This document shows positions 1,511-24,749 of a stretch of 64,000 nt of DNA, piece after piece (the stretch's first letter is position 1; each line of letters opens with the position of its first letter). Source of the stretch: Gemmatimonadota bacterium (lineage in GTDB: Bacteria; Gemmatimonadota; Gemmatimonadetes; Palauibacterales; Palauibacteraceae); the NCBI GenBank assembly GCA_963666735.1, contig OY762926.1, positions 406,734-470,733 of the forward strand, written 5' to 3'. Position numbers and translations under genes: made by a program. Below the pieces are notes generated by a model. It searched no databases, was not told the DNA's origin, and saw nothing but the letters and a program-made list of their open reading frames with translations.

Positions 1511-2787
1511 CTGACATCCATCTTAGGGACCGCGACCTCGCCCTACTGCAAGGAGATGCGGGGGAGGGCACGCGGCTCGCGATGTCGATCCTCGCGCGCA
1601 TGGCCGATGTGGCCGGGGCGCGGGAACTGCTCGACATCACGGCGGCGCACATCGATTCGTCGCTCTACCAGGGACCGGCGACGCTCGAATTCGCGGAGCG
1701 TCTGGCCGAGGGCGGCGCACGGGTCCGGGTCCCGACGACGCTCAACGTGTCGGGCGTGGACGAACACGGATGGCGCGAGTGGGACGTATCCGAATCCTGG
1801 GCGGAACCGGCGCGCCGCCAGATGGAGGCGTACGAGGCGATGGGTTGCGAGCCCACCTGGACGTGCGCGCCGTATCAGACACAGCCGCGCCCGGGGGTCG
1901 GGGAGCAGGTGGCGTGGGGCGAGTCGAGCGCGATCGTGTTCGCGAACTCGGTGCTGGGCGCGCGCACCGAGCGCTACCCGGACCTGCTGGACATCTGTTG
2001 CGCGGTCACGGGCCGGGCCCCGGCCGCGGGGCTCCACCTGACCGGGAATCGAGCGGGGCAGGTGCTCGTCGATCTATCGGGCGTCCCGCGGCGGCTCGCC
2101 GAGGAGCCGGCGCTGTACCCGGTGCTGGGACACTGGACCGGGTTGCGCGTGGAGGGGCGGATCCCGGTGCTCGACGGACTTCGGGCCCGGCCGGGAGAGG
2201 ACGACCTGAAGGCGCTGGGCGCCGCCATGGCCTCCTCCGGCGCCGTAGGCCTGTTCCACTGGGTCAGCCTCACGCCGGAGGCGCCGGACCTGGACGCGGC
2301 GTTTCAGGGGAGGGGACCGGCGACTCGGCTGCGTCCGGGGCCCGCGGCGCTGCGAGCGGCGCGGGATGAACTCGGCTCGGGGCTGTCCGACGCGGACGGG
2401 CTCGACCTCGTCGTGCTGGGGAGCCCGCACTTCTCACTGTCGGAATTCGCGGGTCTAGCCCGGCTCGTGGAAGGGCGGCGGCGTCACCCGGGCGTTCGCG
2501 TGCTCATCACGACGGGCCGCGCGGTACGCGCGCTGGCGCGGGAGGCCGGGTACCTCGACGCGATTGAACGGTTCGGAGGCGAACTGACCGTGGACACCTG
2601 CATCCTGACGACGCCCATGCTGCCCGAGAGCATCCGGCGACTCATGACCAACTCCGCCAAGTACGCCTGGTACACCCCCGGCTTGCTCGATCGCGCCGTC
2701 GCCTTCGGGAGCCTGGCAGACTGTGTGGATTCTGCCGTCGCCGGGCGCGTCACGCGGGACGACGGCGCATGGACCGCCGAACCGTGA
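1507..2787 (+). CDS. Aconitase X (AcnX) large/catalytic subunit, DUF521 family (cis-3-hydroxy-L-proline dehydratase-like, type IIa)
   Basis: 426 aa; GTG start overlapping the upstream stop; family-typical segments 'HIDSSLYQGPATLEFAERLAEGGARVRVPTTLNVSG' and 'CAPYQ'. Followed by a DUF126 small subunit. Confidence 0.7.
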   Translation: MTDIHLRDRDLALLQGDAGEGTRLAMSILARMADVAGARELLDITAAHIDSSLYQGPATLEFAERLAEGGARVRVPTTLNVSGVDEHGWREWDVSESWAEPARRQMEAYEAMGCEPTWTCAPYQTQPRPGVGEQVAWGESSAIVFANSVLGARTERYPDLLDICCAVTGRAPAAGLHLTGNRAGQVLVDLSGVPRRLAEEPALYPVLGHWTGLRVEGRIPVLDGLRARPGEDDLKALGAAMASSGAVGLFHWVSLTPEAPDLDAAFQGRGPATRLRPGPAALRAARDELGSGLSDADGLDLVVLGSPHFSLSEFAGLARLVEGRRRHPGVRVLITTGRAVRALAREAGYLDAIERFGGELTVDTCILTTPMLPESIRRLMTNSAKYAWYTPGLLDRAVAFGSLADCVDSAVAGRVTRDDGAWTAEP

Positions 2788-3224
2788 GTGATCGACGGGC
2801 CGCATCGGGTTCCGGTCCGCTGGCCGGCCGAGCGCTCGTCCCGGGTGCCGCGGAAGGCGCCGTCCTCTACTCCTCCGAGCCGCTCAGCTTCTGGGGCGGC
2901 TACGACGCCGAGACCGGGGAGATCATCGACCGGCGCCATCCGCTGGTCGGCCGGATCGGGGCCGGCCGCATCCTGGCCATCCCGGCGACCCGCGGGTCCA
3001 GCACGACGACCGCCGTCCTCCTCGAAGCCATCCGCCGCGGCACGGCCCCGGCGGCGTTTCTGACCCGCGGCCCCGACACCTTCCTCGCGCTCGCCGCCAT
3101 AGTCGCCGCCCAGCTCTACGCCCGGTCTCCGCCGGTCGTCGCACTCTCCTCTGCAGACTTCGAGAAGGTAGAGGAGATCCATCGCGCCCGCGTCGACTCC
3201 GCAGGCGCGATTATACCCATCTAA
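2769..3224 (+). CDS. Aconitase X small/swivel subunit, DUF126 family
   Basis: 151 aa; 'GRALVPGAAEGAVLYSSEPLSFWGGYDAETGEIID', typical of the AcnX small subunit. Alternative GTG start at 2784 overlaps the large-subunit stop (GTGA). Confidence 0.7.
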   Translation: MDRRTVSDRRAASGSGPLAGRALVPGAAEGAVLYSSEPLSFWGGYDAETGEIIDRRHPLVGRIGAGRILAIPATRGSSTTTAVLLEAIRRGTAPAAFLTRGPDTFLALAAIVAAQLYARSPPVVALSSADFEKVEEIHRARVDSAGAIIPI

Positions 3225-3238
3225 ATCTAAACCGGAAT

Positions 3239-4711
3239 TCAGCGCCGGTAGTCGAGCGGCGGCGGGCGGTCGCCCAGCAGCGCCTCGTATGCGAAGTTCA
3301 AGCCGCGCCGCTCCGTCAGTTCCTCCCACGCCGAGGCGATCACGTTCGGCGACTGGAAGAGTTCGATCGTGGTCAGCGCAAGCGTCTTGGCCGCGACCAT
3401 CATCCCCTTCGTGCCGATGTCCGTGCCGCCGGCCGCGACCGCCTGCCAGCTGTGCGCGGAAGTGCCCGGCACCCACGTGGCCGTCCCGAGACCTGCGGTC
3501 GGCACGACCCAGCTGATGTCGCCCACGTCGGTCGACCCGCCGCCGACGCCCTCGACGCCGAACTCGACGATCTCGCTCTCTGATCCCAGCGGCCGCGAAG
3601 GGCCGCCCTCGAAGGTGGCCTGGATCTGCCGGGCGAAGGCGCGTTCCGCCTCCGTGTACTCCACGCCGCCCACCTTGCGCAGATTCGCGTCCATCACCTT
3701 GCCGAGGGCGACGTTGGGCACGAGGTCGTACAGCCCGTGGATGACCTCGTACTCCATCTCCGTCCCCGTCCCGAGCGCCGCACCCTCGGCCGCCCGCGCC
3801 ACGCGTTCGAACAGCTCCAGCACCGTCGGGGCGTAGGGGTGCCGTACGTAGTAATAGACCTCGGCGAAGTCCGGCACGACGTTGGGGGCGAACCCGCCCT
3901 GCGTGATGACGTAGTGGATGCGCGTCTCCTGCGGGACGTGTTCGCGCATGAGGTTCACCATGTGGTTCATCGCCTCCACCCCGTCGAGGGCGCTACGCCC
4001 CCGGTCCGGCGCCCCCGCGGCGTGCGCGGAGTAGCCGCTGAAGCGGAACTTCGCCGACTTGTTGGCGAGCGAGCGTCCGGCCTGTGCGCTGTTCCGCGAA
4101 CTCGGGTGCCAGTGCAGCGCCACGTCCACATCGTCGAACAGGCCGTCGCGCACCATGTACACCTTGCCCGCGCCGCCCTCCTCGGCCGGCGTGCCGTAGA
4201 GCCGGATCGTCCCCTCATGGCCCGACTCGTCGAGCCACTCCTTGACCGCGATGGCCGCCGCCACGGAGCCGGTGCCGAACAGGTGGTGGCCGCACGCGTG
4301 ACCCGCGCCCCCCTCGATGATGGGCGAGCGCTCCGGCACCGCATCCTGCGAGATGCCCGGCAGGGCGTCGTATTCCGCCAGGATCCCGATGATCGGCCCT
4401 CCGGAACCGTAGCTCGCCACGAAGGCGGTGGGCATCCCCGCAACCCCGGATTCGACGGAGAACCCGGCCGCCTCGAGTTCGCCCTTCAGCAACTCGGAAC
4501 TCTGCTCCTCCTGGTAGCCGACCTCGGCCCACTCCCAGATCTGCCGCGCGACGCCCGCGTAGTGGTCGCGACGCGCCTCAATGCCCGCGATCTGCGCGTC
4601 CTGAGCCGCCGCCACGAGGGGCAGCGGGAATACGGCCACGAAGGCGCCGACGAGGAGCCGGCGGCCGAGGAGCTTCCTGTTCGCGACGGGACTTCCGGCT
4701 GACATGGACAT
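3239..4711 (-). CDS. M20D-family amidohydrolase (AbgB / hippurate hydrolase-like), secreted
   Basis: Start trimmed to M136 of the 625-aa track ORF ('MSMSAGSPVANRKLLGRRLLVGAFVAVFPLPLVAAAQ' signal peptide). 'GHACGHH' metal-binding motif; 'GTPAEEGGAGK'. The upstream 135 codons are Arg/Pro-rich GC artefact. Confidence 0.75.
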   Translation of the reverse strand: MSMSAGSPVANRKLLGRRLLVGAFVAVFPLPLVAAAQDAQIAGIEARRDHYAGVARQIWEWAEVGYQEEQSSELLKGELEAAGFSVESGVAGMPTAFVASYGSGGPIIGILAEYDALPGISQDAVPERSPIIEGGAGHACGHHLFGTGSVAAAIAVKEWLDESGHEGTIRLYGTPAEEGGAGKVYMVRDGLFDDVDVALHWHPSSRNSAQAGRSLANKSAKFRFSGYSAHAAGAPDRGRSALDGVEAMNHMVNLMREHVPQETRIHYVITQGGFAPNVVPDFAEVYYYVRHPYAPTVLELFERVARAAEGAALGTGTEMEYEVIHGLYDLVPNVALGKVMDANLRKVGGVEYTEAERAFARQIQATFEGGPSRPLGSESEIVEFGVEGVGGGSTDVGDISWVVPTAGLGTATWVPGTSAHSWQAVAAGGTDIGTKGMMVAAKTLALTTIELFQSPNVIASAWEELTERRGLNFAYEALLGDRPPPLDYRR

Positions 4712-15752: not shown

Positions 15753-15957
15753 GAGGTTCCTCTCCGGTCTACAGGTTGGGTGTCACGGGACGGAATCGGT
15801 CCCGGCGAATGCCGCAGCGTAACGCCGCAGCGCAAGGTGCGCGGATCATATGCGCCGACCCGAACGGACGGCCAGTCCATGGGCTCTTGCTCGCGAACGA
15901 CGCAGCCTGTACCCGGAAGTGATGGGTAGGCCAGCTCTTGCCGTCGGGACACAAGAA

Positions 15958-16815
15958 ATGAATCCTCGCACGAACAACCTTGCCGGCGTGGACAACGTCA
16001 TCCCCCGTCCGGGGATGCTGGCCACCGTGCGGAAACGACGCGGCACAGTGACGTCGGTATCTCCGTTCGACGGCGAGACGGGACGGCTACACCTCGTTCA
16101 TCTCGAATACCGCGACGGCGGCTCACCGTCCGACGAGCGTCTGCTGTGGGAACTCGAGCCACGCAAGACCCTCCTTGAGCCGACCGCATTGCCGGACGCT
16201 TCCCGCTCCGATCCCATGCCTCCGGCCGATTTCGACGCTCTGCTACGGGCCGCGCGATGGACCGCGCTGTCGCCGTACCTGGGCCTTGACGGCAACGGTC
16301 GCGAGGAGGGCAAAGGGATAGGAGCTTTCCTTGCCCAGAACGGCGGCGAAGGCTGGTTGCTTCCCGAAACCCTTCGCTTGGCCGATTACGGACTGGGCCA
16401 TGACGACCGCGCTCAGCACCATCAGCCCGTCGCCAGCCGTCTCGGTCCACGATTCTGCGATTGGCAGCTCGCCCAGAGCGCCGAGGAGGATCGACGAGAG
16501 TGCCACCTGCATGCGCGCAACCTTCTGGGCCGGGTCGAGTACGTTCAGCTTCTCGGCCGGTTGGTCGGGCACCGCAGACGGCACGGACAGGGGCACCACG
16601 ATCTCCTCTTCAACGGGTTTACGCACGACTTGATCGGCGACACTTCGTCGATCGATGGCAAGGAGTTCGGCTACTCCGAGGCGGACCAGATTTTCGAGGA
16701 AGAAGGAGCGGCTCGGCGCGTCGCCGAAGCGGGTCCGGGCTACTCGACCGCGCCCTTCCGCAGGCCGGGTCAGACCGAGATGTTCCCAAGGTCTCAGACC
16801 GAGCCTCCCCTGTAG
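15958..16815 (+). CDS. Hypothetical protein (beta-rich N-terminal segment 'ATVRKRRGTVTSVSPFDGETGRLHLVHLEYRDG' faintly reminiscent of Tudor-like N-termini of RapA/SNF2-type proteins)
   Basis: Start 'MNPRTNN'; codon third-position GC is high throughout. Its stop is 11 nt upstream of the AlbA_2 gene (16827), which has its own RBS: an operon-like arrangement. Competing antisense ORF 16243-16626 not excluded. Confidence 0.4.
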   Translation: MNPRTNNLAGVDNVIPRPGMLATVRKRRGTVTSVSPFDGETGRLHLVHLEYRDGGSPSDERLLWELEPRKTLLEPTALPDASRSDPMPPADFDALLRAARWTALSPYLGLDGNGREEGKGIGAFLAQNGGEGWLLPETLRLADYGLGHDDRAQHHQPVASRLGPRFCDWQLAQSAEEDRRECHLHARNLLGRVEYVQLLGRLVGHRRRHGQGHHDLLFNGFTHDLIGDTSSIDGKEFGYSEADQIFEEEGAARRVAEAGPGYSTAPFRRPGQTEMFPRSQTEPPL

Positions 16816-16826
16816 AAGGCAGGACC

Positions 16827-18032
16827 ATGTTCGACACGCCCGACCAGATTTTGCGTCAGCTGAGAGCCGGAGAGGACAGCCGCGCCGAGTTCAAAGAACT
16901 CCGTTTCGGCGAACGAGGTGTGATCTCCCCGAACACGGAGGATTTGGCCGGGGAGATGGTGTCGTTCGCCAACGCGGAGGGCGGGACGATCTTCCTTGGC
17001 GTGGATGACGACGGGGACATCGTCGGCGTGCCTCGGGAGAAGTCGCAGCTCGTGGAGCAATGGGTGCTCAACGTCGCAACCCAGAACTGCGATCCGCCCC
17101 TCCGGCCGGAAGTCAGGCGGGAGGCCCTTCCGGTGCCGGGGGAGAACGGCCTGTCCATCATCCTAGTGACCGTTCCGCAGGGACTGTTTGCCCACTGTAC
17201 TGCCGGCGGCCGCTACTACGTCCGCCTCGGGTCGACCAAACGCCGTCTCACTCCCCCGGAGCTGGCCCGCCTGTTTCAGGAACGGGGCCGGGGGTATGTC
17301 TTCGACGAGCAGCAGGTCTTCTCCGGCGCGGTGGAGAATCTGGACTGGAACCGGTTGGAGGCGTTCTTCGGCCGCTCGCCGAGGATCCCATGGCTCGACC
17401 TCCTCCGGAATACGCGGGTGACCATCTGCGACCAAGGCGGCGTGGATCGGCCTACCGTTGCCGGGTTGCTCGCATTCTCGTCGGATCCGGCCGGTCTGTT
17501 GCCATCCGCGTACGTCGAGGCGGCCTGCTACGGCGGAACCCGCCTCTCATCGGATGATCTGGTGCATGCCGAGCGTCTCGCCGGTCCGGTCTCCGACCAG
17601 ATCGACGCAGGTATCGCCTTCGTCATGCACTTCATGAGCGCCGGACGTACGGCCGAGGGCATGGACGTGTACGACATCGATGTGGTAGACGAGGCCATCG
17701 TCAACGCCGTGGCCCACCGGGACTACTCCGTTTCGGGCTCGAAGATCCGCCTGTTCCTGTACGCCGACCGCTTGGAACTGTACAGCCCCGGCAAGCTGCC
17801 CAACGGACTGACGATCGAGGAGATGCCTTACCGCACCTTCACGCGCAACCAGCTTCTGGTCAGCTTTCTATCGAAGATGCGCAGCAAGCGCACCGGCCAG
17901 GTCTTCCTTGAGTCCCGAGGGGAAGGCGTGCGGAAGATCTTGGAGGACGGCGAGGCCCACGCAGGCCGCCGCCCGGAATACGAGCTGTTCGGAAACGAGC
18001 TCCGCCTGACCATTTGGGCGCTGAGGCGGTAG
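16827..18032 (+). CDS. Schlafen-like AlbA_2 (divergent AAA / AAA_4) + HATPase_c_4 (RecG-C-terminal-like) domain protein
   Basis: Trimmed to 'MFDTPDQILRQL' after RBS GAAGGCAGGA. 'AEFKELRFGE...VSFANAEGGTIFLGVDDDGDIVGV' (AlbA_2); 'DEAIVNAVAHRDYS...YADRLELYSPGKLPNGLTIEEM...RNQLLVSFLSKM' (HATPase_c_4). Confidence 0.7.
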   Translation: MFDTPDQILRQLRAGEDSRAEFKELRFGERGVISPNTEDLAGEMVSFANAEGGTIFLGVDDDGDIVGVPREKSQLVEQWVLNVATQNCDPPLRPEVRREALPVPGENGLSIILVTVPQGLFAHCTAGGRYYVRLGSTKRRLTPPELARLFQERGRGYVFDEQQVFSGAVENLDWNRLEAFFGRSPRIPWLDLLRNTRVTICDQGGVDRPTVAGLLAFSSDPAGLLPSAYVEAACYGGTRLSSDDLVHAERLAGPVSDQIDAGIAFVMHFMSAGRTAEGMDVYDIDVVDEAIVNAVAHRDYSVSGSKIRLFLYADRLELYSPGKLPNGLTIEEMPYRTFTRNQLLVSFLSKMRSKRTGQVFLESRGEGVRKILEDGEAHAGRRPEYELFGNELRLTIWALRR

Positions 18033-18192
18033 CCGTGGGCACGGCCGCCGTCAAGGCGAGAACGGTCACCGTTTGCGAAGGTCGACGCCGCAGCCGAGGC
18101 AGGGTCGGGGAAACGGGGTTTCGCGTGACGCTGAGATGTGGACGGGACGATTCCAGATCACCGGTTAGTATGATATGACAATCGGAGGCACG

Positions 18193-18645
18193 ATGGCGTT
18201 ACCGCAAATCAGCAAAGCCATCCGCAACGAGTTTCGAGAGGTTCTTAGCGGCCATTTTGTTCTGCGAGATATCAGCGACATCGTCACGGCTGCCGGTTTC
18301 TCGGATGACGTCACTTGGGAGGCGTGGGGCAATCGTCGCAAACTCGCTGAAGATTATTTCGCAACCCTGAACCTGGCGAGGCAACGCGATATCGCCATGC
18401 TATTGGCGGCCGTCAATAAAACAGCCGTTCGGTTAACGGCAGACGGTATCCCTGAGGGCATTAGCGATCTCATCCGACTGATGAGGGAGAATGGCTACAG
18501 CTACGAGGATGGTACCTTCACGGCAGTGCAGCAGCAGAAGGCGGTAACGGAGGAGCTAATGATGTGGTCATTGTCTACCTACAATTTCATTTGCTACGGT
18601 AGTCCCGATGCTCTCGTGTTTCGAGATGGAGTTGCCCCGCTTTGA
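18193..18645 (+). CDS. Hypothetical small protein in ~50% GC segment (probably horizontally acquired)
   Basis: GGAGGC RBS; 150 aa, no recognisable motifs. GC is about 20 points below the flanks. Its TGA stop coincides with the putative left end of the IS3 element. Confidence 0.5.
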   Translation: MALPQISKAIRNEFREVLSGHFVLRDISDIVTAAGFSDDVTWEAWGNRRKLAEDYFATLNLARQRDIAMLLAAVNKTAVRLTADGIPEGISDLIRLMRENGYSYEDGTFTAVQQQKAVTEELMMWSLSTYNFICYGSPDALVFRDGVAPL

Positions 18646-18684
18646 CGGACACCTATCCATTGGGGTCAAGCAAGGAGGTGTTCC

Positions 18685-18999
18685 ATGGCGGGCCGGAAGG
18701 GGCGGTATCCATCCGAGTACAGGGAGCGGCTGGTGGAACTGGTGAGGGGCGGGCGTAGTGCCGCGTCACTCGCCCGGAAGTTCGAGCCGTCGGAGCAGAC
18801 GATCCGGAACTGGGTCCGGCAGGCGGATGTGGACGAGGGGTTCCGTAGCGACGGGCTGACAACGGAGGCGCGCAGCGAGCTGCGGCGCCTGGAGCGGGAG
18901 AACAAGCGGCTCAGGATGGAGCGCGACATCCTAAAAAAAGCCGCGGCCTGGTTCGCGAGGGAGAGCGGATCGATCCCCGGCGGGGGTATGCGTTCATGA
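18685..18999 (+). CDS. IS3-family transposase OrfA (HTH/leucine zipper)
   Basis: 'GRYPSEYRERLVELVRGGRSAASLARKFEPSEQTIRNWVRQ' HTH; 'LRRLERENKRLRMERDILKKAAAWF' zipper plus frameshift window. Confidence 0.85.
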   Translation: MAGRKGRYPSEYRERLVELVRGGRSAASLARKFEPSEQTIRNWVRQADVDEGFRSDGLTTEARSELRRLERENKRLRMERDILKKAAAWFARESGSIPGGGMRS

Positions 19000-19844
19000 G
19001 GGCGCACCGGGCCGAGTTCCCGCTTCGGGCCATGTGCCGGGTGCTGGGTCTCTCCCCCAGCGGCTACTACGACTGGTTGAGGCGTCCTCCCTCGGACCGC
19101 GCGCGTCGGGACGCGGAACTGGAGGCGCGGATCGCGAAGATATGGACCGGCAGCGGCGAGACGTACGGCCGTCCGCGGATCCACGCGGCGCTCAGGGCCG
19201 AGGGCGAGCGGGTGGGGCAGAAGCGCGTGGGGCGGCTGATGAGGGGGCTGGAGATCGAGGGCGCGACCAGGCGGCGCTTCAAGACGGCGACGACGAAGAG
19301 GGATGCCGAGGCCCGCCCCGCGCCGGACCTGGTGGACCGTGACTTCTCGGCCTCGGGGCCCGACGAGCTGTGGGTGGCCGACATCACCTACGTCCCCACG
19401 TGGGCTGGCTGGCTGTATCTGGCCGTCGTGCTCGACGTCTGGAGCCGCCGCGTCGTCGGCTGGGCCATGGCGACGCACATGCGGACCGAGCTCGTCGAGA
19501 CCGCGCTGGCGATGGCTCTCGCAAGGCGTCGTCCCGAGGGTCGTGTCGTGCATCATTCCGACAGGGGCTCGCAGTACACCTCGCTCGCCTTCGGGGAGCG
19601 CTGCCGCGAGTCGGGCATCGCCCAGTCCATGGGCTCGGCGGGCGATGCGTACGACAACGCCATGTGCGAGAGCTTCTTCGCCACCCTCGAGTGCGAGCTG
19701 ATCTGGAAGCGCTCGTTCCGCACGGCGGACGAGGCGCGACGGGAGGTCTTCGGCTTCATCGAGGGCTTCTACAACACCCGGCGGCTGCACTCGGCACTCG
19801 GCTACGAGTCGCCGGCCGACTACGAGAGCAACCATGCGGCCTGA
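18996..19844 (+). CDS. IS3-family transposase OrfB (integrase-core DDE), translated via -1 frameshift from orfA
   Basis: 'LWVADITYVPTWAGWLYLAVVLDVWSRRVVGW' (D), 'HSDRGSQYTS' (D), 'GDAYDNAMCESFFATLECE' (E) rve-domain motifs. Confidence 0.85.
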   Translation: MRAHRAEFPLRAMCRVLGLSPSGYYDWLRRPPSDRARRDAELEARIAKIWTGSGETYGRPRIHAALRAEGERVGQKRVGRLMRGLEIEGATRRRFKTATTKRDAEARPAPDLVDRDFSASGPDELWVADITYVPTWAGWLYLAVVLDVWSRRVVGWAMATHMRTELVETALAMALARRRPEGRVVHHSDRGSQYTSLAFGERCRESGIAQSMGSAGDAYDNAMCESFFATLECELIWKRSFRTADEARREVFGFIEGFYNTRRLHSALGYESPADYESNHAA

Positions 19845-19942
19845 GGCGCACCCGCGGCGCACACCGACATCCTCTCCCGAGCGCCTGAGGGAGGCTGAAA
19901 GGAGAAGAACCGGAGGCGATCAACCACAGAAACTAACCGTCC

Positions 19943-20791
19943 GTGAAAGCGGGACAGCTCCAAGATCATACGGGTTCCAGTACATTCTCGAGGGGTCGGT
20001 TGTTCGAGTACACGAGTGAGGTGCTGAAGCTCCGGTATGAGACGGACGTGTCTTCGCTCGCCAAGCTGCCTGCTCTTATTGTCGCGGAGGCTATGCCTGA
20101 CGGGAAACCCGAGACACCCGCTTTCCTTGCACAGATTGGCGATGTCCACATTGGCGGTGACGATGTCCGGTTCCGGTTTCGACGGATCGAGACGGAGCAG
20201 TTCAGTTCTGAGGAGATATTTGAATCACGACGGTTCGACACAGGACGCTGGGAGCACTCACGGACGCACTGGGCGGTCAAGGAAGGCGATGTGCTTGAGG
20301 GGCTCTTCCTTTTTTTCGCTGATCGCGCGAGCGCGCAAGAAGCGCTGTTCCCGAGTATTGCAAAACCACGATTTGTTCGCCTCGACGATTGGCCTGCACC
20401 GGTCTTGGGACACGTCGCCGTCATGATGCCGTTCGATCGTGAGTATGACGTCGTCTATGACCGGATTCGGAAGGCTTGCGACATCCACAAACTTGACGCC
20501 GTACGAGTTGACGACATCTATGGGCCCAGTAGCATCATCGACGATGTTTTCAAACTCATTGTGCAAAGCAGATTTGTGATCAGTGATCTGACTAACAAGA
20601 ACCCAAATGTCTTATACGAAACTGGTATCGCCCACGCACGCAACAGCGAAGTCATAATGATCGTGCAGAGTGATGCGGATATACCGTTTGATCTCCGGCA
20701 TATTAGGTATATCAAATATCTCCCCAATGATGAAGGATATAGTCAACTCGAAACGGATCTGGTGAAAGCGATCGCTGCGATTGTTGAATGA
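19943..20791 (+). CDS. Hypothetical protein with C-terminal SLOG/TIR-like Rossmann domain (nucleoside 2-deoxyribosyltransferase-like); possible defence effector, N-terminus possibly truncated by IS3
   Basis: ~50% GC. C-terminal 'VAVMMPFDREYDVVYDRIRKACDIHKLDAVRVDD...IVQSRFVISDLTNKNPNVLYETGIAHARNSEVIMIV' fits the Nuc_deoxyrib_tr/SLOG pattern (D..GTafE.GyA.a.gK.vi). GTG start lies inside the putative IS3 right end. Confidence 0.5.
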   Translation: MKAGQLQDHTGSSTFSRGRLFEYTSEVLKLRYETDVSSLAKLPALIVAEAMPDGKPETPAFLAQIGDVHIGGDDVRFRFRRIETEQFSSEEIFESRRFDTGRWEHSRTHWAVKEGDVLEGLFLFFADRASAQEALFPSIAKPRFVRLDDWPAPVLGHVAVMMPFDREYDVVYDRIRKACDIHKLDAVRVDDIYGPSSIIDDVFKLIVQSRFVISDLTNKNPNVLYETGIAHARNSEVIMIVQSDADIPFDLRHIRYIKYLPNDEGYSQLETDLVKAIAAIVE

Positions 20792-20883: not shown

Positions 20884-22401
20884 TTACGATATGGATGGCG
20901 AGGGTTGAGTCGTGCCGCCAGGCATGCGCAGCCGCTTGCCCTCGCTTTCGGCCTCGTCGGGATCCAGGAAGGCATGGCACGCTTCCAGCTCCCGTTCCGT
21001 CTCTCGAAGCGAGGTCCAGGCGACGGCAAGGGTCCACCGCTGGGCGTAGCTGAGCATGTCGATCAAAGGCTGGGGCCGGCGGTCGGTTCGGGACAGCGCA
21101 GGGAGTGCGGCGAGGTAGTTGTTTCGGTACGCGGTCGGGATGATGATTCGCTCCTCACCGGCTGCCACGAGCTCCGCATTCATCATCACGCGCGCGACGC
21201 GTCCGTTTCCGTCCGCGAAGGGATGCACCTCGGCCACGAGGAACATCATGTAGACCGCCCGGGCAAGAGGCGACTCGAGGCTGCGATACAGAGAGAAGCC
21301 TCGCTCCAGCGTCCCTGATACCAGATCGGGGAGGACGAAGTGGGTGCCGCCGGCCTTGTTCGCAGCGTCCTTGAACTCGCCGGGGCGCATTTCGGGACGC
21401 CCTGCCATGATACGCCGGTGGCGGCTTCGCAGGAGACTCGTAAGCTCCGCTGGATCCCTCGGTGTGCGCGTCATCTCCTGTGGATCGGAGACCAAACGCC
21501 ACGTTCCGATCACATCGCGAGCATCTGCGGGTCTGCGCTGTGGAATCTCGCCGTCGAAAACGATTCGCACGGCCTCGTCGACCAGGAACTCGGTGCCCTC
21601 GACGAAGTTCGAGAAGTATGCCTCGAAGAACGCCAGCGTGGCGCGGCCCTGCCCATCCCGGTGCGGTGCGGATCGTACGGTCGGAGGATGGTCGCGGAGC
21701 GCCCGATGCAGCTTGTGAAACAATTCCATGCGGTCGGGATCGTAGGCGTTCGCCCGGCTGCGGGCCCGCGCAAGCGGTGAATCGAGTTCACTGCGGCGGG
21801 TGCCGAGGAGAGTGCCGATGAGAGCGTCGAGGCGGGCCGCCTCCGTCTCCAGACCGAGTTCGGCGGCCACGGCGCGGGCCTCGTCCCGCAGCTGCTTGAC
21901 GGCCGGTTCGCCGGAGTGACGGATAAGGCGATCGAGTGCTTCCTCAATCTGAGCCTGGGGGAGCGTGCGTGGCACCCGGCCGCCCCGGGTCCGAGACGGG
22001 CGCAGGTTCTGCAGGTAGGCCCGGGTCCTCGAGCTGAGGTATAGTCCTTCGGCGAAGGGCATATCGGATGTGATCGGTCCGGAACCGCGTCTCGGACGGA
22101 GTACGATGCCCGGCAACTCGATGGTCCTGCCGCGCTCGCTGACGAGGCATACGGAGCCATCGGACGCGGGGGCCGCCTCGAAGGCCGTGCGGTCGGCGAC
22201 CAGGGCACCTGGAAAATACCCGGCGACGATCATCCACAGGTTGCGTTTCACGATCTCCCTGGGCGCATCCTCCAGGTTCTTCGTGTAGAGGCGGGACGCG
22301 AGCTTGCGCAGCGTCCCGGCCTTCACGGCCCGCGACACTTCACCGCTGATCGCCGTATGCGACACGAAGGCTTCGGGCAGTTCGTCCAGCGTGCGGTTCA
22401 T
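20884..22401 (-). CDS. Fic/Doc-family protein (Fido domain), long form
   Basis: Start trimmed to 'MNRTLDELPEAF'. Canonical Fic motif 'HPFADGNGRVARV'. About 505 aa with a long N-terminal region. Confidence 0.8.
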   Translation of the reverse strand: MNRTLDELPEAFVSHTAISGEVSRAVKAGTLRKLASRLYTKNLEDAPREIVKRNLWMIVAGYFPGALVADRTAFEAAPASDGSVCLVSERGRTIELPGIVLRPRRGSGPITSDMPFAEGLYLSSRTRAYLQNLRPSRTRGGRVPRTLPQAQIEEALDRLIRHSGEPAVKQLRDEARAVAAELGLETEAARLDALIGTLLGTRRSELDSPLARARSRANAYDPDRMELFHKLHRALRDHPPTVRSAPHRDGQGRATLAFFEAYFSNFVEGTEFLVDEAVRIVFDGEIPQRRPADARDVIGTWRLVSDPQEMTRTPRDPAELTSLLRSRHRRIMAGRPEMRPGEFKDAANKAGGTHFVLPDLVSGTLERGFSLYRSLESPLARAVYMMFLVAEVHPFADGNGRVARVMMNAELVAAGEERIIIPTAYRNNYLAALPALSRTDRRPQPLIDMLSYAQRWTLAVAWTSLRETERELEACHAFLDPDEAESEGKRLRMPGGTTQPSPSIS

Positions 22402-22445
22402 CGAATTTTTCCGAGGATAACGATAAGAGAATCGCGCAAAACGCA

Positions 22446-22484
22446 AATTATCTTAACATAAGGAGCCCGAAATGCGAAAAAAGT
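22446..22484 (+). repeat. 39-bp low-GC direct repeat copy 1 (left flank of the 22629-24650 cassette; Fic promoter region)
   Basis: 'AATTATCTTAACATAAGGAGCCCGAAATGCGAAAAAAGT' versus copy 2 at 24711-24749, 35/39 identical. Sits in a ~40% GC stretch within a ~70% GC genome. Confidence 0.75.
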
Positions 22485-22628: not shown

Positions 22629-24650
22629 ATGGCCCTGAATCCCGTCGCCTACATCGAGAAGGTTGCGAAGAGTTTCCTCCGCTACCAGCTCACGGCCTAC
22701 CCCTTCTCCGACCCTCACCTCCTGGAGCAGATGCGGGAACTGCTGTCGCTGGACCACACCCGTGCCTCCCCGCTTCTCAGGGAGACCTCTGTCGGCGCGT
22801 CATCGTCGCTTGCGGGTGAGACGCTTCAAGCCATGGCGGTGTGCGATGTCGACCTAAGCCACACATCCCATATCTCCGACGACGAGGAACTGCACTTCCA
22901 GCTGGGTGTTGCGGTGTACGGCCTCGAACTCGGACAGCACAGTGGCGGGCGGGCGTACGGCTGGGGGGAGAGGTCGCTCCTCATGCGGCGAGGCGTACGC
23001 ATGCGCCTCGTCAACGTCGGTGCTTCGGAGCCGATCAGGGCAAGAGACAGCTTCGGCTATCCCGTCTGTACGATCTGCGGCCAGAGCGTGTCGCCGCTGT
23101 CATCTCAACGGCAACGTCAGAGCTTCCGCGAATCGCACCGTGATCGTTGCGGACGTGAGCCGAGGCGGGTCGGGTTCTACGCCGATATCGCGGCCGACGC
23201 GTTGTCGCTGCGCGAGTGCGTCAATGCTACCCAGGCCTACAGCGTTCTCGAGGCGTTGCGGATCGGCGCGACCCGTATCCTCGACATGCACATGGAGGAT
23301 CTGCAGATCCTCGTCATTGGCGAGATCGGACGCGACGAGGTGTTGGGTCTCCTATGGGATCCGATGCCCGGAGGGTCCGGGCTGCTCGACCGCCTGTGCG
23401 AGCGCTTCGCGGAGATCGTAGCTGTCGCCCGCGAGGTCGTAGAGGGGTGCCCGAGCGTCTGCGGGTCGTCGTGTATCGATTGTCTGCAGACCTTCCGCAA
23501 CGCGTACTACCACTCCAGCCTGGATCGGAGGGCCGCTCTGGACGCGCTCGGGGAGTGGGGAGAGCAACTCGCGTTCCGGCACGATGTCCCGCCGCGGCAA
23601 CCTGCATCCACGCCCGCCGATGATGCGGTGCCCGTCAATCTGGCCGAGAGGAAGCTGCGCCATCTCCTCCTCCGGGCGGGATTCGGGGAGGGCACGCGCG
23701 GAGAACAGATCCGGCTCGACAGCGCCCTTGGCACGACTACGCCCGACGTCATCTACCGCGACGATGATGACGATTTCTGCAAGGGCGTATGCATCTACCT
23801 CGACGGAATGAGCGCGCATCTGCACGGCAGCCCCGAGACCGCCGCGAGGGATCGGGAAATTCGCCACTGGCTACGGGGCAGCGGCTACGAAGTCCTGGAG
23901 ATTCCAGCCAACGAACTCGACGACGAGGGCGCCATGACGGGCCATTTCCGTCGCCTCGCGAACTATCTGGGCCAACCCAATCGCGGGCGAGATCTTTCCG
24001 ACGACCGGAGTTGGTTCGCGGATCCCGATCCAGCGGGGAAAACAGACGATCCAGCGGACAGCCCGCGCTTGCGCCTGGTTACCCCCACTCCCGAGAGTCG
24101 CTACCAAACATGCGTCCCGCTGGTGCCGCTGCGGGCGGCGGCGGGAGCCTTCGGCGATCCGAACGAGACACTTGACGAGTGGGACCGGGACTGGGTAGCC
24201 GCCGACACGGTTCGTCGGCTCCGGGACGGAATGTTCGTGGCTCGCGTGACCGGCCGCTCGATGGAGCCGCGTATTCCCGATGGTTCGTATTGCCTCTTCG
24301 CAAGTCCTGTAACCGGCTCGCGCCAAGGGCGCACGGTGCTGGTGATCATGCGGGACGATGTGGACCCGGAGACGGGCGCCCGGTTCACCATGAAGCGATA
24401 CCGAAGCAAGAAGATGGAAGATGAGCATGGCTGGCGACACGCCAAGATCAGCCTGGAGCCAACCAACCCGGATTTCGACCCCATCATCCTCAGAGTGGAT
24501 GACGAGGCGGCGGTGGGTGTCGTGGCGGAACTCGTTGAAGTCCTCGGTCGCGACCCCCCCGAGCCGCGATTGGGTACGGCCCCGGAGCTGATCCGACGGA
24601 TGGGGGATGACTTCGACGAGCCGCTCCCGGATTTCTCGGAGCATCAGTGA
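22629..24650 (+). CDS. Multidomain protein: DUF1998-like (DrmB/MrfB-type) N-terminal zinc module + Vsr/DUF559-like endonuclease fold + C-terminal LexA-type S24 autopeptidase
   Basis: 673 aa. N-terminus 'NPVAYIEKVAKSFLRYQLTAYPF'. Cys cluster C147/C150 ('YPVCTICGQ') and 'CPSVCGSSCIDC' (aa 274-285). aa 373-445 'DVIYRDDDDDF...VCIYLDGMSAHLHG...DREIRHWLRGSGYEVLEI'. aa 495-640 aligns to LexA/UmuD/CI: 'PLVPLRAAAGAFGDP' (Ala505-Gly506), 'GRSMEP' (Ser544), 'MKRY' (Lys589). No helicase or ATPase motifs. Confidence 0.65.
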   Translation: MALNPVAYIEKVAKSFLRYQLTAYPFSDPHLLEQMRELLSLDHTRASPLLRETSVGASSSLAGETLQAMAVCDVDLSHTSHISDDEELHFQLGVAVYGLELGQHSGGRAYGWGERSLLMRRGVRMRLVNVGASEPIRARDSFGYPVCTICGQSVSPLSSQRQRQSFRESHRDRCGREPRRVGFYADIAADALSLRECVNATQAYSVLEALRIGATRILDMHMEDLQILVIGEIGRDEVLGLLWDPMPGGSGLLDRLCERFAEIVAVAREVVEGCPSVCGSSCIDCLQTFRNAYYHSSLDRRAALDALGEWGEQLAFRHDVPPRQPASTPADDAVPVNLAERKLRHLLLRAGFGEGTRGEQIRLDSALGTTTPDVIYRDDDDDFCKGVCIYLDGMSAHLHGSPETAARDREIRHWLRGSGYEVLEIPANELDDEGAMTGHFRRLANYLGQPNRGRDLSDDRSWFADPDPAGKTDDPADSPRLRLVTPTPESRYQTCVPLVPLRAAAGAFGDPNETLDEWDRDWVAADTVRRLRDGMFVARVTGRSMEPRIPDGSYCLFASPVTGSRQGRTVLVIMRDDVDPETGARFTMKRYRSKKMEDEHGWRHAKISLEPTNPDFDPIILRVDDEAAVGVVAELVEVLGRDPPEPRLGTAPELIRRMGDDFDEPLPDFSEHQ

Positions 24651-24710
24651 GCGAACATCAAGAACCGAGATTATTCGAACGGTAAGGGTTCCGCAGGACT
24701 CGAAAATGAG

Positions 24711-24749
24711 AATTATCTCAACATAAGAAGCCCTAAACGCGAAAAAAGT
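24711..24749 (+). repeat. 39-bp low-GC direct repeat copy 2 (right flank of cassette)
   Basis: 'AATTATCTCAACATAAGAAGCCCTAAACGCGAAAAAAGT'; lies between the converging 3' ends of genes 22629-24650 and 24799-25407. Confidence 0.75.

Follow-up and report, generated by a model that had tools for sequence, protein, structure and literature searches.

In the ARMADA Type I system (Bell et al., 2025; PMC12458937), ArmC is a YprA-family helicase that carries a C-terminal Vsr nuclease, and Walker A/B mutants of ArmC lose all protection. Related helicases occur in Druantia, where DruE of type III has PLD nucleases and DruE of types I and II has an inactivated Vsr domain. In DISARM, DrmB is naturally a separate gene beside DrmA, and a DUF1998 module comparable to that of DrmB is present in Bacillus subtilis MrfA/YprA. 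Self-cleaving peptidases of the S24 family (MEROPS S24), such as LexA, UmuD, and lambda CI, have as their cargo a DNA-binding repressor domain or the short UmuD arm. S24 peptidases cleave themselves at an Ala-Gly bond when bound by RecA-ssDNA filaments. The S24 domain dimerises in LexA and CI, and the new carboxyl end of the LexA N-terminal fragment makes it a ClpXP substrate.

In the window, by which the whole 64,000-nucleotide stretch analyzed here is meant, one ORF joins a DUF1998 module, a Vsr-fold domain, and a LexA-like S24 module. An earlier note proposed that its product is a native, helicase-less DrmB/MrfB-like effector acting on its own. Comparison with sister genomes does not bear this out: the ORF derives from an armC-type gene by a recent, lineage-specific deletion and very probably represents a remnant within a decayed defence island.

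Domain Architecture of the 673-aa Protein

The ORF at 22629-24650 (+) begins with ATG and encodes 673 aa without interruption, in agreement with the earlier note. Its first 51 codons (22629-22781, +) are the kept helicase N-terminal region ahead of RecA1 and have the same start as the full-length relatives P0121, P0019, and L007. The N-terminal segment that had been singled out, MALNPVAYIEKVAKSFLRYQLTAYPF..., is indeed the true N-terminus of full-length YprA/DruE-type helicases, the gene starts of P0121, P0019, P0001, and L007 being alike. In the AF2 model, codons 1-51 have pLDDT values of 33-49, and values below 50 (residues 1-36 and 72-92) flank the deletion junction, the N-terminal ~95 residues as a whole being of low confidence.

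The rest of the OB-CON-DUF1998 (MZB) canopy module, from which the initial OB-fold strands have been deleted, occupies 22908-23618 (+). The Pfam MZB profile (PF09369) aligns with aa 209-286 at E 6e-7 (30.5 bits vs a gathering cut-off of 24.2), and little or no variation is seen in the four cysteines of the zinc cluster (C274, C278, C282, and C285). Profile, cluster, and fold all agree with the DUF1998 zinc segment seen earlier in this region. The Vsr and S24 domains of the window ORF are missing from DrmB. Moreover, no natively separate OB-CON-DUF1998 gene beside a DrmA helicase gene is found here; unlike DrmB, the window ORF is helicase-less only through a recent deletion.

The Vsr-fold PD-(D/E)xK nuclease domain (23631-24008, +; aa ~335-460) shows the Vsr fold with the conserved acidic and histidine residues D373, D392, and H399. 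The Vsr-like reading thus stands on fold and conserved residues, although the Pfam Vsr and DUF559 profiles give no match in the window protein at E<=1. A PDB sequence-profile search with this protein returned YprA and a DruE-like chain (9tu7_Y, matching the MZB region), and neither LexA nor Vsr; the likeness to these two was obtained afterwards by fold comparison. Unlike Vsr, DUF559, and I-Bth0305I nucleases, this Vsr-fold domain sits inside a giant multidomain protein.

The C-terminal tail (24561-24647, +; aa 645-673) weakly resembles a VapB antitoxin C-terminus (NCBIfam TA_VapB, E 0.0033). It is common to the window protein and the orthologue at locus L010, where a degenerate PIN/VapC remnant lies downstream of it, and is missing at locus L007. 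An exact look-up in public assemblies found no sequence identical to the window protein.

Full-Length Orthologues and the Deletion

The syntenic gene in a sister genome (Ca. Palauibacter, locus L007) encodes 1,998 aa with ~94% amino acid identity to the window copy, and the syntenic orthologue in a second sister genome (L010) encodes 2,019 aa with 89% identity. Both have a complete DEAD/Helicase_C core. Residues 1-51 of the window protein correspond to residues 1-51 of L007, and residues 52-644 to residues 1396-1988, at ~94% identity. The flanks are collinear on both sides (90-95% nucleotide identity to L007 and 83-90% to L010), and 4,032 bp are missing at one point. Synteny offsets from blastn, together with a three-way view of both L007 breakpoints, place the junction at 22777-22782 (+). 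The absent segment (1,344 codons, L007 aa 52-1395) is in frame and is bounded by two 6-bp TCAGGG microhomologies. Because it includes both RecA domains, as well as the first OB strands, no Pfam DEAD or Helicase_C domain is detected in the window ORF, which upholds the earlier observation that the protein lacks helicase motifs. No helicase gene was found adjoining the ORF. The YprA-family SF2 core (RecA1/RecA2, Walker A/B) that characterizes ArmC of ARMADA is held by L007, L010, P0121, and P0137, whereas the window copy, without residues 52-1395, lacks it. A single in-frame deletion therefore explains the window gene. The parent encodes a protein of ~2,000 aa; from its start to its end this has an N-terminal strand, RecA1, insertions, RecA2, the OB-CON-DUF1998 canopy, the Vsr nuclease, and the LexA-like S24 module.

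Lineage-specific substitutions were counted after the columns of the first 50 residues, mis-aligned by MAFFT, had been removed by hand. The window lineage has ~13 non-synonymous vs ~35 synonymous changes, and the sister lineages have 16/28 and 27/69; there is no non-synonymous excess among the changes specific to the window lineage. As a separate observation, the 673 open codons, the in-frame deletion with the native start, and the intact Vsr and S24 residues speak against a dead relic.

The full-length form is widespread. At 58 of 80 species-representative loci the full-length query (aa 1 to ~1968) is matched without a break, and 58 of the 70 assessable loci are intact. One intact copy belongs to an isolate with a complete genome, Syntrophus buswellii DM-2 (NZ_CP175563.1, locus L052), and P0121 and P0137 have DEAD, Helicase_C, MZB, and S24 domains together. 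Comparable deletions are found on long contigs of other assemblies (L001, L002, L006, L014, L015, and L080); the L080 deletion shifts the reading frame, and in L001 foreign DNA is present along with a stop codon. The idea that nearly all close relatives are 5'-truncated, or that a conserved short form exists, was considered and rejected, given these intact loci and breakpoints that all differ. Truncated proteins are over-represented among the protein-database matches because the query was the C-terminal part, which favours proteins that keep it. An in-frame bias of the deletions was likewise set aside as a signal of selection; it is an ascertainment effect, since only in-frame events leave one ORF holding both ends.

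Relation to ARMADA and Decay of the Island

The full-length relatives form an ARMADA Type I-like operon, as assigned by domain architecture and neighbours rather than by phylogeny with published representatives such as WP_108720193.1 for ARMADA I and WP_000937974.1 for ARMADA II. As in ARMADA Type I, their partners are an SNF2 helicase resembling BrxHII/DrmD and a methyltransferase resembling PglX/DrmMI, in both described gene orders. The partner proteins score in PADLOC as DrmD (E 1e-192) and as REase_MTase_IIG/DrmMI. The methyltransferase is upstream in 27 loci, and the SNF2 helicase is present in 9, counts that are limited by the 10-kb flanks. The family described here differs from published ARMADA Type I ArmC by an additional ~170-aa LexA-like S24 module after the Vsr domain. 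Druantia DruE is the best PADLOC match (E 1e-18 on the DUF1998 region of the window protein; E 1e-108 to 1e-115 along the whole length of full-length proteins). However, PADLOC-DB 2.0 is older than ARMADA and holds no model of it, so that the DruE match reflects family-level similarity only. Unlike in Druantia, the PADLOC matches for the scanned neighbour proteins include no DruH, DruA-D, or DruMFG models, the partners being DrmD-like and DrmMI/IIG-like, and the Vsr residues, inactivated in DruE of types I and II, are conserved in the present family.

On the other hand, all that the window itself holds of such a partner set is a fused stub at 15850-16815 (+), recognized by blastp/tblastn and PADLOC. 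In it the N-terminus (~aa 1-116) of a DrmD/BrxHII-like, ArmA-like helicase continues in frame into the final ~100-120 aa of a PglX/DrmMI-like, ArmB-like methyltransferase. Its two parts are 60-77% identical to the partner genes of related loci (blastp/tblastn); PADLOC assigns aa 45-141 to the DrmD/DrmA N-terminus and aa 154-230 to the REase_MTase_IIG C-terminus (E 2e-28). The junction is at ~16295-16299, where a second deletion joined the SNF2 gene stub to the methyltransferase gene tail. Between the two remnants, Pfam matches (OrfA HTH_Tnp_1, OrfB rve) and a gap in blastn synteny identify an IS3-family insertion (18627-19963, +). This element is missing at the syntenic L007 locus and breaks a 425-aa island gene that is intact there as ORF 2751-4028. 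The defence system of the window is thus decayed, with two multi-kilobase deletions and an IS3 insertion within 9 kb.

The surroundings largely match what was described before. GC content is 0.53-0.66 across ~15.5-25 kb (0.73 in one interval over the IS3 element) vs mostly 0.67-0.74 in the flanks, which corroborates the lower-GC island, and the Fic gene is present at 20884-22446 (-). Direct repeats are also present, but they are not 39 bp long and one-sided as was thought: a repeat search found 47-nt AT-rich copies, 85% identical, on both sides of the gene (22438-22484 and 24703-24749, both +). No such repeat arose in 100 shuffles, and the repeats bracket the full-length gene in L007 and L010 as well. 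Scans for tRNAs and for sigma-70 promoters and terminators around the gene yielded nothing informative.

The product of the window ORF would be incapable of DNA translocation or unwinding and would be without partners; most likely it is a relic without function in a defence island undergoing decay. Expression may nevertheless continue, given an open frame and the retention of the native start and upstream region. A residual or new function is possible, or the deletion may simply be very recent. A stronger version of this idea, namely that the protein is a genuine effector working without a helicase (DrmB-like, or a remnant with a new function) and that S24 autocleavage stimulated by RecA* releases or activates its Vsr nuclease, as a stand-alone toxin or defence triggered by SOS or phage, appears improbable. 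In its favour are an intact ORF that keeps the native start and the upstream region, the retention of D373, D392, and H399 along with the S24 dyad and cleavage site, lineage-specific substitutions that give no sign of relaxed constraint, and a defence-island position beside Fic and Schlafen-type genes. However, the junction occurs in the window genome only, among 268 proteins and 86 loci, and the syntenic sister genomes hold the full-length gene; the OB fold is cut behind a poorly modelled N-terminus, and the partner genes have been destroyed within the same island. Truncated relatives break at many different positions, and therefore there is no conserved short form, while Walker A/B mutations in ArmC abolish ARMADA protection (PMC12458937). 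An artefact, in which the true genome is full-length and the assembler collapsed or skipped 4 kb, is more improbable still: the closest relatives are MAGs and the window may be metagenome-derived too, but the 6 bp shared at the breakpoints are far below what repeat collapse needs, the junction is in frame, the same island was hit independently by another deletion and by an IS element, and similar deletions lie on the long contigs listed above.

The S24 Module

The part of the remnant that extends what is known of ArmC is the LexA-like S24 autopeptidase module (24111-24563, +; aa ~495-645). Its predicted scissile bond is A505-G506 (24141-24146), followed by Ser544 (24258-24260) and Lys589 (24393-24395). 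Pfam Peptidase_S24 (PF00717) matches aa 502-632 (E 2e-8, 34.2 bits vs a cut-off of 23.3), and it matches all of the 21 other carriers too. An hhalign comparison with E. coli LexA brings S544 and K589 into register with S119 and K156, respectively (probability 89%, E 2e-6). The module has the fold of the LexA C-terminal domain, and the Ala-Gly site is situated in a strand upstream of the core, in the motif VPLVPLRAAAGAF. Across loci, S544 is conserved in 86/86, K589 in 85/86, A504-A505 in 86/86, and G506 in 85/86. The assignment of an S24 domain with a Ser544/Lys589 dyad and an Ala505-Gly506 site, made in the earlier note, is therefore well founded. Hundreds of relatives have the same S24 fusion, which therefore does not stem from chimeric assembly.

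The loci with the C-terminal module number at least 86 and come from many phyla; the catalytic residues and the cleavage site hardly vary among them. It also occurs on Type ISP/Eco57I (ISP/IIG) methyltransferases and on HsdR-type and PLD-type enzymes. Methyltransferase-borne modules are 54-59% identical to that of the window, whereas some ArmC-borne ones are more distant (41-49%). No S24 module was found on the neighbouring ArmB or ArmA proteins, where it would hint at heterodimerisation. The cargo differs from that of LexA, UmuD, and CI: N-terminal of the predicted cleavage site there is a helicase-nuclease of ~1,800 aa in the present family, and other carriers have a methyltransferase or a restriction subunit there.

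Term searches of PMC12458937 and its supplements found no mention of the S24 module, and in openly readable papers no S24 or LexA-like domain was found on ARMADA, Druantia, restriction-modification, or other defence proteins. The predicted self-cleaving LexA-like domain at the C-terminus of the intact ArmC-type family is, as judged from sequence, previously unreported.

A Possible Proteolytic Switch

In the intact parent, the conserved sequence ...VPLxPLx(A/V)AA|G would be the site of S24 self-cleavage. If LexA, UmuD, and lambda CI are a guide, the trigger would be docking of S24 in the groove of the RecA-ssDNA filament. RecA-independent cleavage of some LexA-like proteins is also described (PMC7101444). 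Cleavage would separate the helicase-nuclease from S24, a dimerising domain in LexA and CI, and would expose an ...AAA or ...VAA carboxyl end of the ClpXP type, as in the LexA N-terminal fragment. At the level of sequence and fold the idea holds that S24 autoproteolysis could couple the family to RecA* and SOS. In the preferred reading, based on this analogy, S24 would be a safety switch that turns the enzyme off during host DNA damage and recombinational repair, a built-in restriction alleviation. It is almost equally likely that cleavage on RecA* filaments induced by phage activates the enzyme; which way the switch turns is a matter of pure inference.

More generally, the ~170-aa S24 module may be a portable and catalytically competent RecA*-sensing proteolytic switch that has repeatedly been added at the C-terminal end of immunity enzymes of the restriction type (ARMADA ArmC, Type ISP/IIG methyltransferase-nucleases, HsdR, and PLD nucleases). 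AA|G cleavage would free the dimerising domain and expose an ...AAA-COOH end of the ClpXP type, so that the enzyme would be shut down when host DNA is damaged, as a hard-wired restriction alleviation, or turned on when phage replicates; the copy in the window would then represent this class in a decayed state. This proposal is tentative and somewhat less likely than not.

What appeared to be a new helicase-less effector is a relic, left by deletion, of a system whose kind is known, and the locus illustrates how large defence operons decay. New with respect to the description of ARMADA and YprA proteins are the direct fusion of a LexA-type autopeptidase to a defence helicase-nuclease and the occurrence of the same module on several classes of restriction enzymes. 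Control of defence linked to SOS is known at the transcriptional level. The S24 fusions, as far as sequences can tell, suggest a RecA*/SOS-linked proteolytic switch on restriction-type immunity. If this is true, RecA*-responsive post-translational cleavage inside the effectors would be a separate layer of control, and would provide a concrete molecular handle on restriction alleviation and on self/non-self safety in DNA repair.

Origin of the window ORF

The ORF at 22629-24650 (+) runs for 673 codons without interruption and has two Pfam matches above gathering, MZB/DUF1998 (aa 209-286) and Peptidase_S24 (aa 502-632), both predicted in an earlier note made from sequence alone; aa 125-307 also match the C-terminal part of the DruE models (PADLOC, E 1e-18). 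The Ser544/Lys589 dyad named in that note is in register with Ser119/Lys156 of E. coli LexA in a profile comparison. As the note had stated for helicase motifs, no helicase domain was detected in the ORF by Pfam. The note took this for a native helicase-less architecture, a reading contradicted by the syntenic locus L007 of a sister genome, where the gene is full-length (1,998 aa) and includes aa 52-1395, which the window lacks.

Most homologues are longer than the window ORF and contain Helicase_C; relatives numbered 502 in a scan limited to one genome per species. The full-length representatives P0121 (1,969 aa) and P0137 (1,978 aa) both carry DEAD, Helicase_C, MZB and S24 domains and match DruE models over their whole length (PADLOC, E ~1e-110). 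In homologue comparison, aa 1-51 of the window ORF correspond to the extreme N-terminus of the full-length proteins and aa 52-644 to their final ~600 residues. The best relatives are in Ca. Palauibacter MAGs (Gemmatimonadota), at 94% (L007) and 89% (L010) amino acid identity. Collinearity between L007 and the window extends to both sides (90-95% nucleotide identity) and is broken twice: a 1,337-bp IS3-family element (HTH_Tnp_1 OrfA and rve OrfB, 18627-19963) is present only in the window, and 4,032 bp of L007, or 1,344 codons (aa 52-1395 of 1,998), are missing from it. TCAGGG occurs at both L007 breakpoints, and a single copy is left at window 22777-22782. Judged from these alignments, the window ORF arose by a simple in-frame deletion mediated by microhomology. 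It lost RecA1 and RecA2 with all their insertions, as well as the first OB-fold strands, which explains why the structure model of the window protein is poor at residues 1-36 and 72-92. Non-synonymous change is not in excess in the ORF; this, the open frame and the kept start fit a recent deletion.

The 5' breakpoints of three independent armC deletions (window 22777-22782, L001 ~9440 and L080 ~8861) lie within codons 47-59, directly after the conserved N-terminal region; this shared zone may reflect a hotspot or mere chance. In the decayed copy of L001 (9298-10000), between a 48-codon armC N-terminal stub and the 3' 1,156 armC codons lies a fragment similar to phage terminase small subunits, judged by eye from the sequence 'ERFVCEYLVDLNASAAYQRAGY...', implying foreign DNA at the deletion site.

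The last ~29 residues of the window ORF (24561-24647) look like the C-terminus of a VapB antitoxin (NCBIfam E 0.003). The same tail precedes a degenerate PIN/VapC remnant in L010 (11929-12320), and the L007 tail is different; the armC 3' end appears fused to a decayed vapBC module. Direct repeats had been noted near the gene as 39 bp long; they are AT-rich, 47 nt long (AAAAYG..AATTATCTYAACATAAGRAGCCC.AAAYGCGAAAAAAGT) and lie on both sides of the armC remnant (22438-22484 and 24703-24749). They bracket armC in all three Palauibacter genomes (5670 and 11913 in L007; 5697 and 12452 in L010), around intact and deleted copies alike. An insertion scar, an att-like site and a regulatory element are candidate origins.

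The parent operon and its decay

In related loci the gene adjoins a 1,650-1,760-aa methyltransferase (PADLOC REase_MTase_IIG/DrmMI) and a ~1,100-aa BrxHII-like SNF2 helicase (PADLOC DrmD, E 1e-192), encoded upstream or downstream of it. ARMADA consists of YprA-like ArmC with a C-terminal Vsr nuclease, BrxHII-like ArmA and PglX-like ArmB, and both gene orders are described for Type I (PMC12458937). The parent operon has the same components and the same two orders, and is ARMADA Type I-like, as assigned by architecture rather than by tree placement. Because protection is lost in ArmC Walker A/B mutants and all ARMADA genes tested are essential (PMC12458937), the window copy cannot provide ARMADA defence. 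Its Vsr-S24 part may retain residual activity. The domains, dyad and island of the earlier note stand, and its interpretation holds only in part; the window gene is a deletion relic.

The operon has suffered another in-frame deletion of several kilobases, marked by the ORF at 15850-16815 (+). This ORF has no Pfam match; homology to intact partner genes identifies it as a stub in which the N-terminal ~116 residues of an ArmA-like (DrmD/BrxHII-like) helicase (60-71% identity) are fused to the last ~100-120 residues of an ArmB-like (PglX/DrmMI-like) methyltransferase (71-77%). L007 keeps at least methyltransferase residues 1351-1733, up to where its locus sequence breaks off. A 425-aa gene (18175-18645 and 19943-20791) is interrupted by the IS3 element; its L007 orthologue is intact and weakly resembles a TIR effector model (PADLOC E 2e-8). 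Between the two ARMADA remnants lie a Schlafen AlbA_2 and HATPase_c_4 protein gene (16461-18032, +; PADLOC pAgo-associated model, E 2e-17) and the Fic gene (20884-22446, -; SoFic/PDC-S04 models, ~1e-15). The latter is the upstream neighbour of armC that the note had named, in an island that is indeed lower in GC than its flanks. As armB and armC are directly adjacent in other lineages, the Schlafen-Fic block seems to have been inserted into the operon.

Similar multi-deletion decay was found in L002 and L080. Among 80 genome loci, 58 are intact, 10 are cut at contig ends, nine have frameshifts, an insertion or a small deletion, and three have large deletions; armC-S24 is disrupted by such changes in ~12 of 70 assessable species-representative genomes. 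This suggests that the large gene decays often, some frameshifts possibly being long-read assembly errors.

The S24 module

The gene in the window is the relic of a system of known kind; its parent is a variant with something new, an ARMADA-type ArmC bearing a LexA-like S24 module. Over 86 loci from many phyla, S544, A504-A505 and Vsr D373, D392 and H399 are invariant, and K589 and G506 are each conserved in 85. The cleavage-site strand has the consensus VPL[VIM]PLx[AV]AAGxF[GS], similar to the LPLVGRVAAGEP motif of LexA. The S24 fold, catalytic dyad and scissile motif are conserved in the intact family.

LexA, UmuD and lambda CI self-cleave at Ala-Gly when docked in the RecA filament groove (PMC9926225). 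By analogy, RecA* would promote cleavage of intact ArmC-S24, which would part the S24 domain, a domain that dimerises in LexA and CI, from the helicase-nuclease and give ArmC a C-terminus of ...AAA or ...VAA; in the window protein, only a crippled ~505-aa fragment would be freed. The LexA N-terminal fragment is a ClpXP substrate through such an end, and alleviation of Type I restriction after DNA damage is ClpXP-dependent. For these reasons an off-switch that would spare the host chromosome during repair is slightly, and tentatively, favoured. The on-switch of the earlier note, in which RecA* on phage DNA would trigger ArmC-S24, is nearly as likely. Alternatively, the module could act without cleavage, by docking or dimerisation.

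ArmC-like proteins of ~1,800 aa without S24 outnumber those with it (50%-identity representatives), implying that S24 was added in a sub-branch. No S24 module was found on the neighbouring ArmA and ArmB proteins. The same module, with a preceding RxRxVxPxPxxRY(V)xCVPL stretch, ends 21 proteins of other kinds, among which are carriers of Type_ISP_C (nine), Eco57I (four), N6_Mtase (two), HSDR_N, SWI2_SNF2 and ResIII together (one), T1RH-like_C (one) and PLDc_2/RE_NgoFVII (one). Carriers P0204-P0263 and locus L087, with Type ISP/Eco57I-like methyltransferases, an HsdR-like protein, a T1RH-like_C protein and a nuclease of PLD/NgoFVII type among them, have modules 54-60% identical to that of the window, and P0251 and P0260 have a further ~200-aa domain beyond it. 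Some ArmC-borne modules share only 41-49% identity with the window's, against 54-59% for methyltransferase-borne ones, a sign of domain shuffling. The ARMADA paper and its supplements (PMC12458937) make no mention of an S24 domain, and a literature search, with most subscription journals outside its reach, found no paper on S24/LexA-like domains on ARMADA, Druantia or restriction enzymes. The S24 module behaves like a portable unit added to the C-termini of restriction-type enzymes, and as such is a lead worth pursuing.
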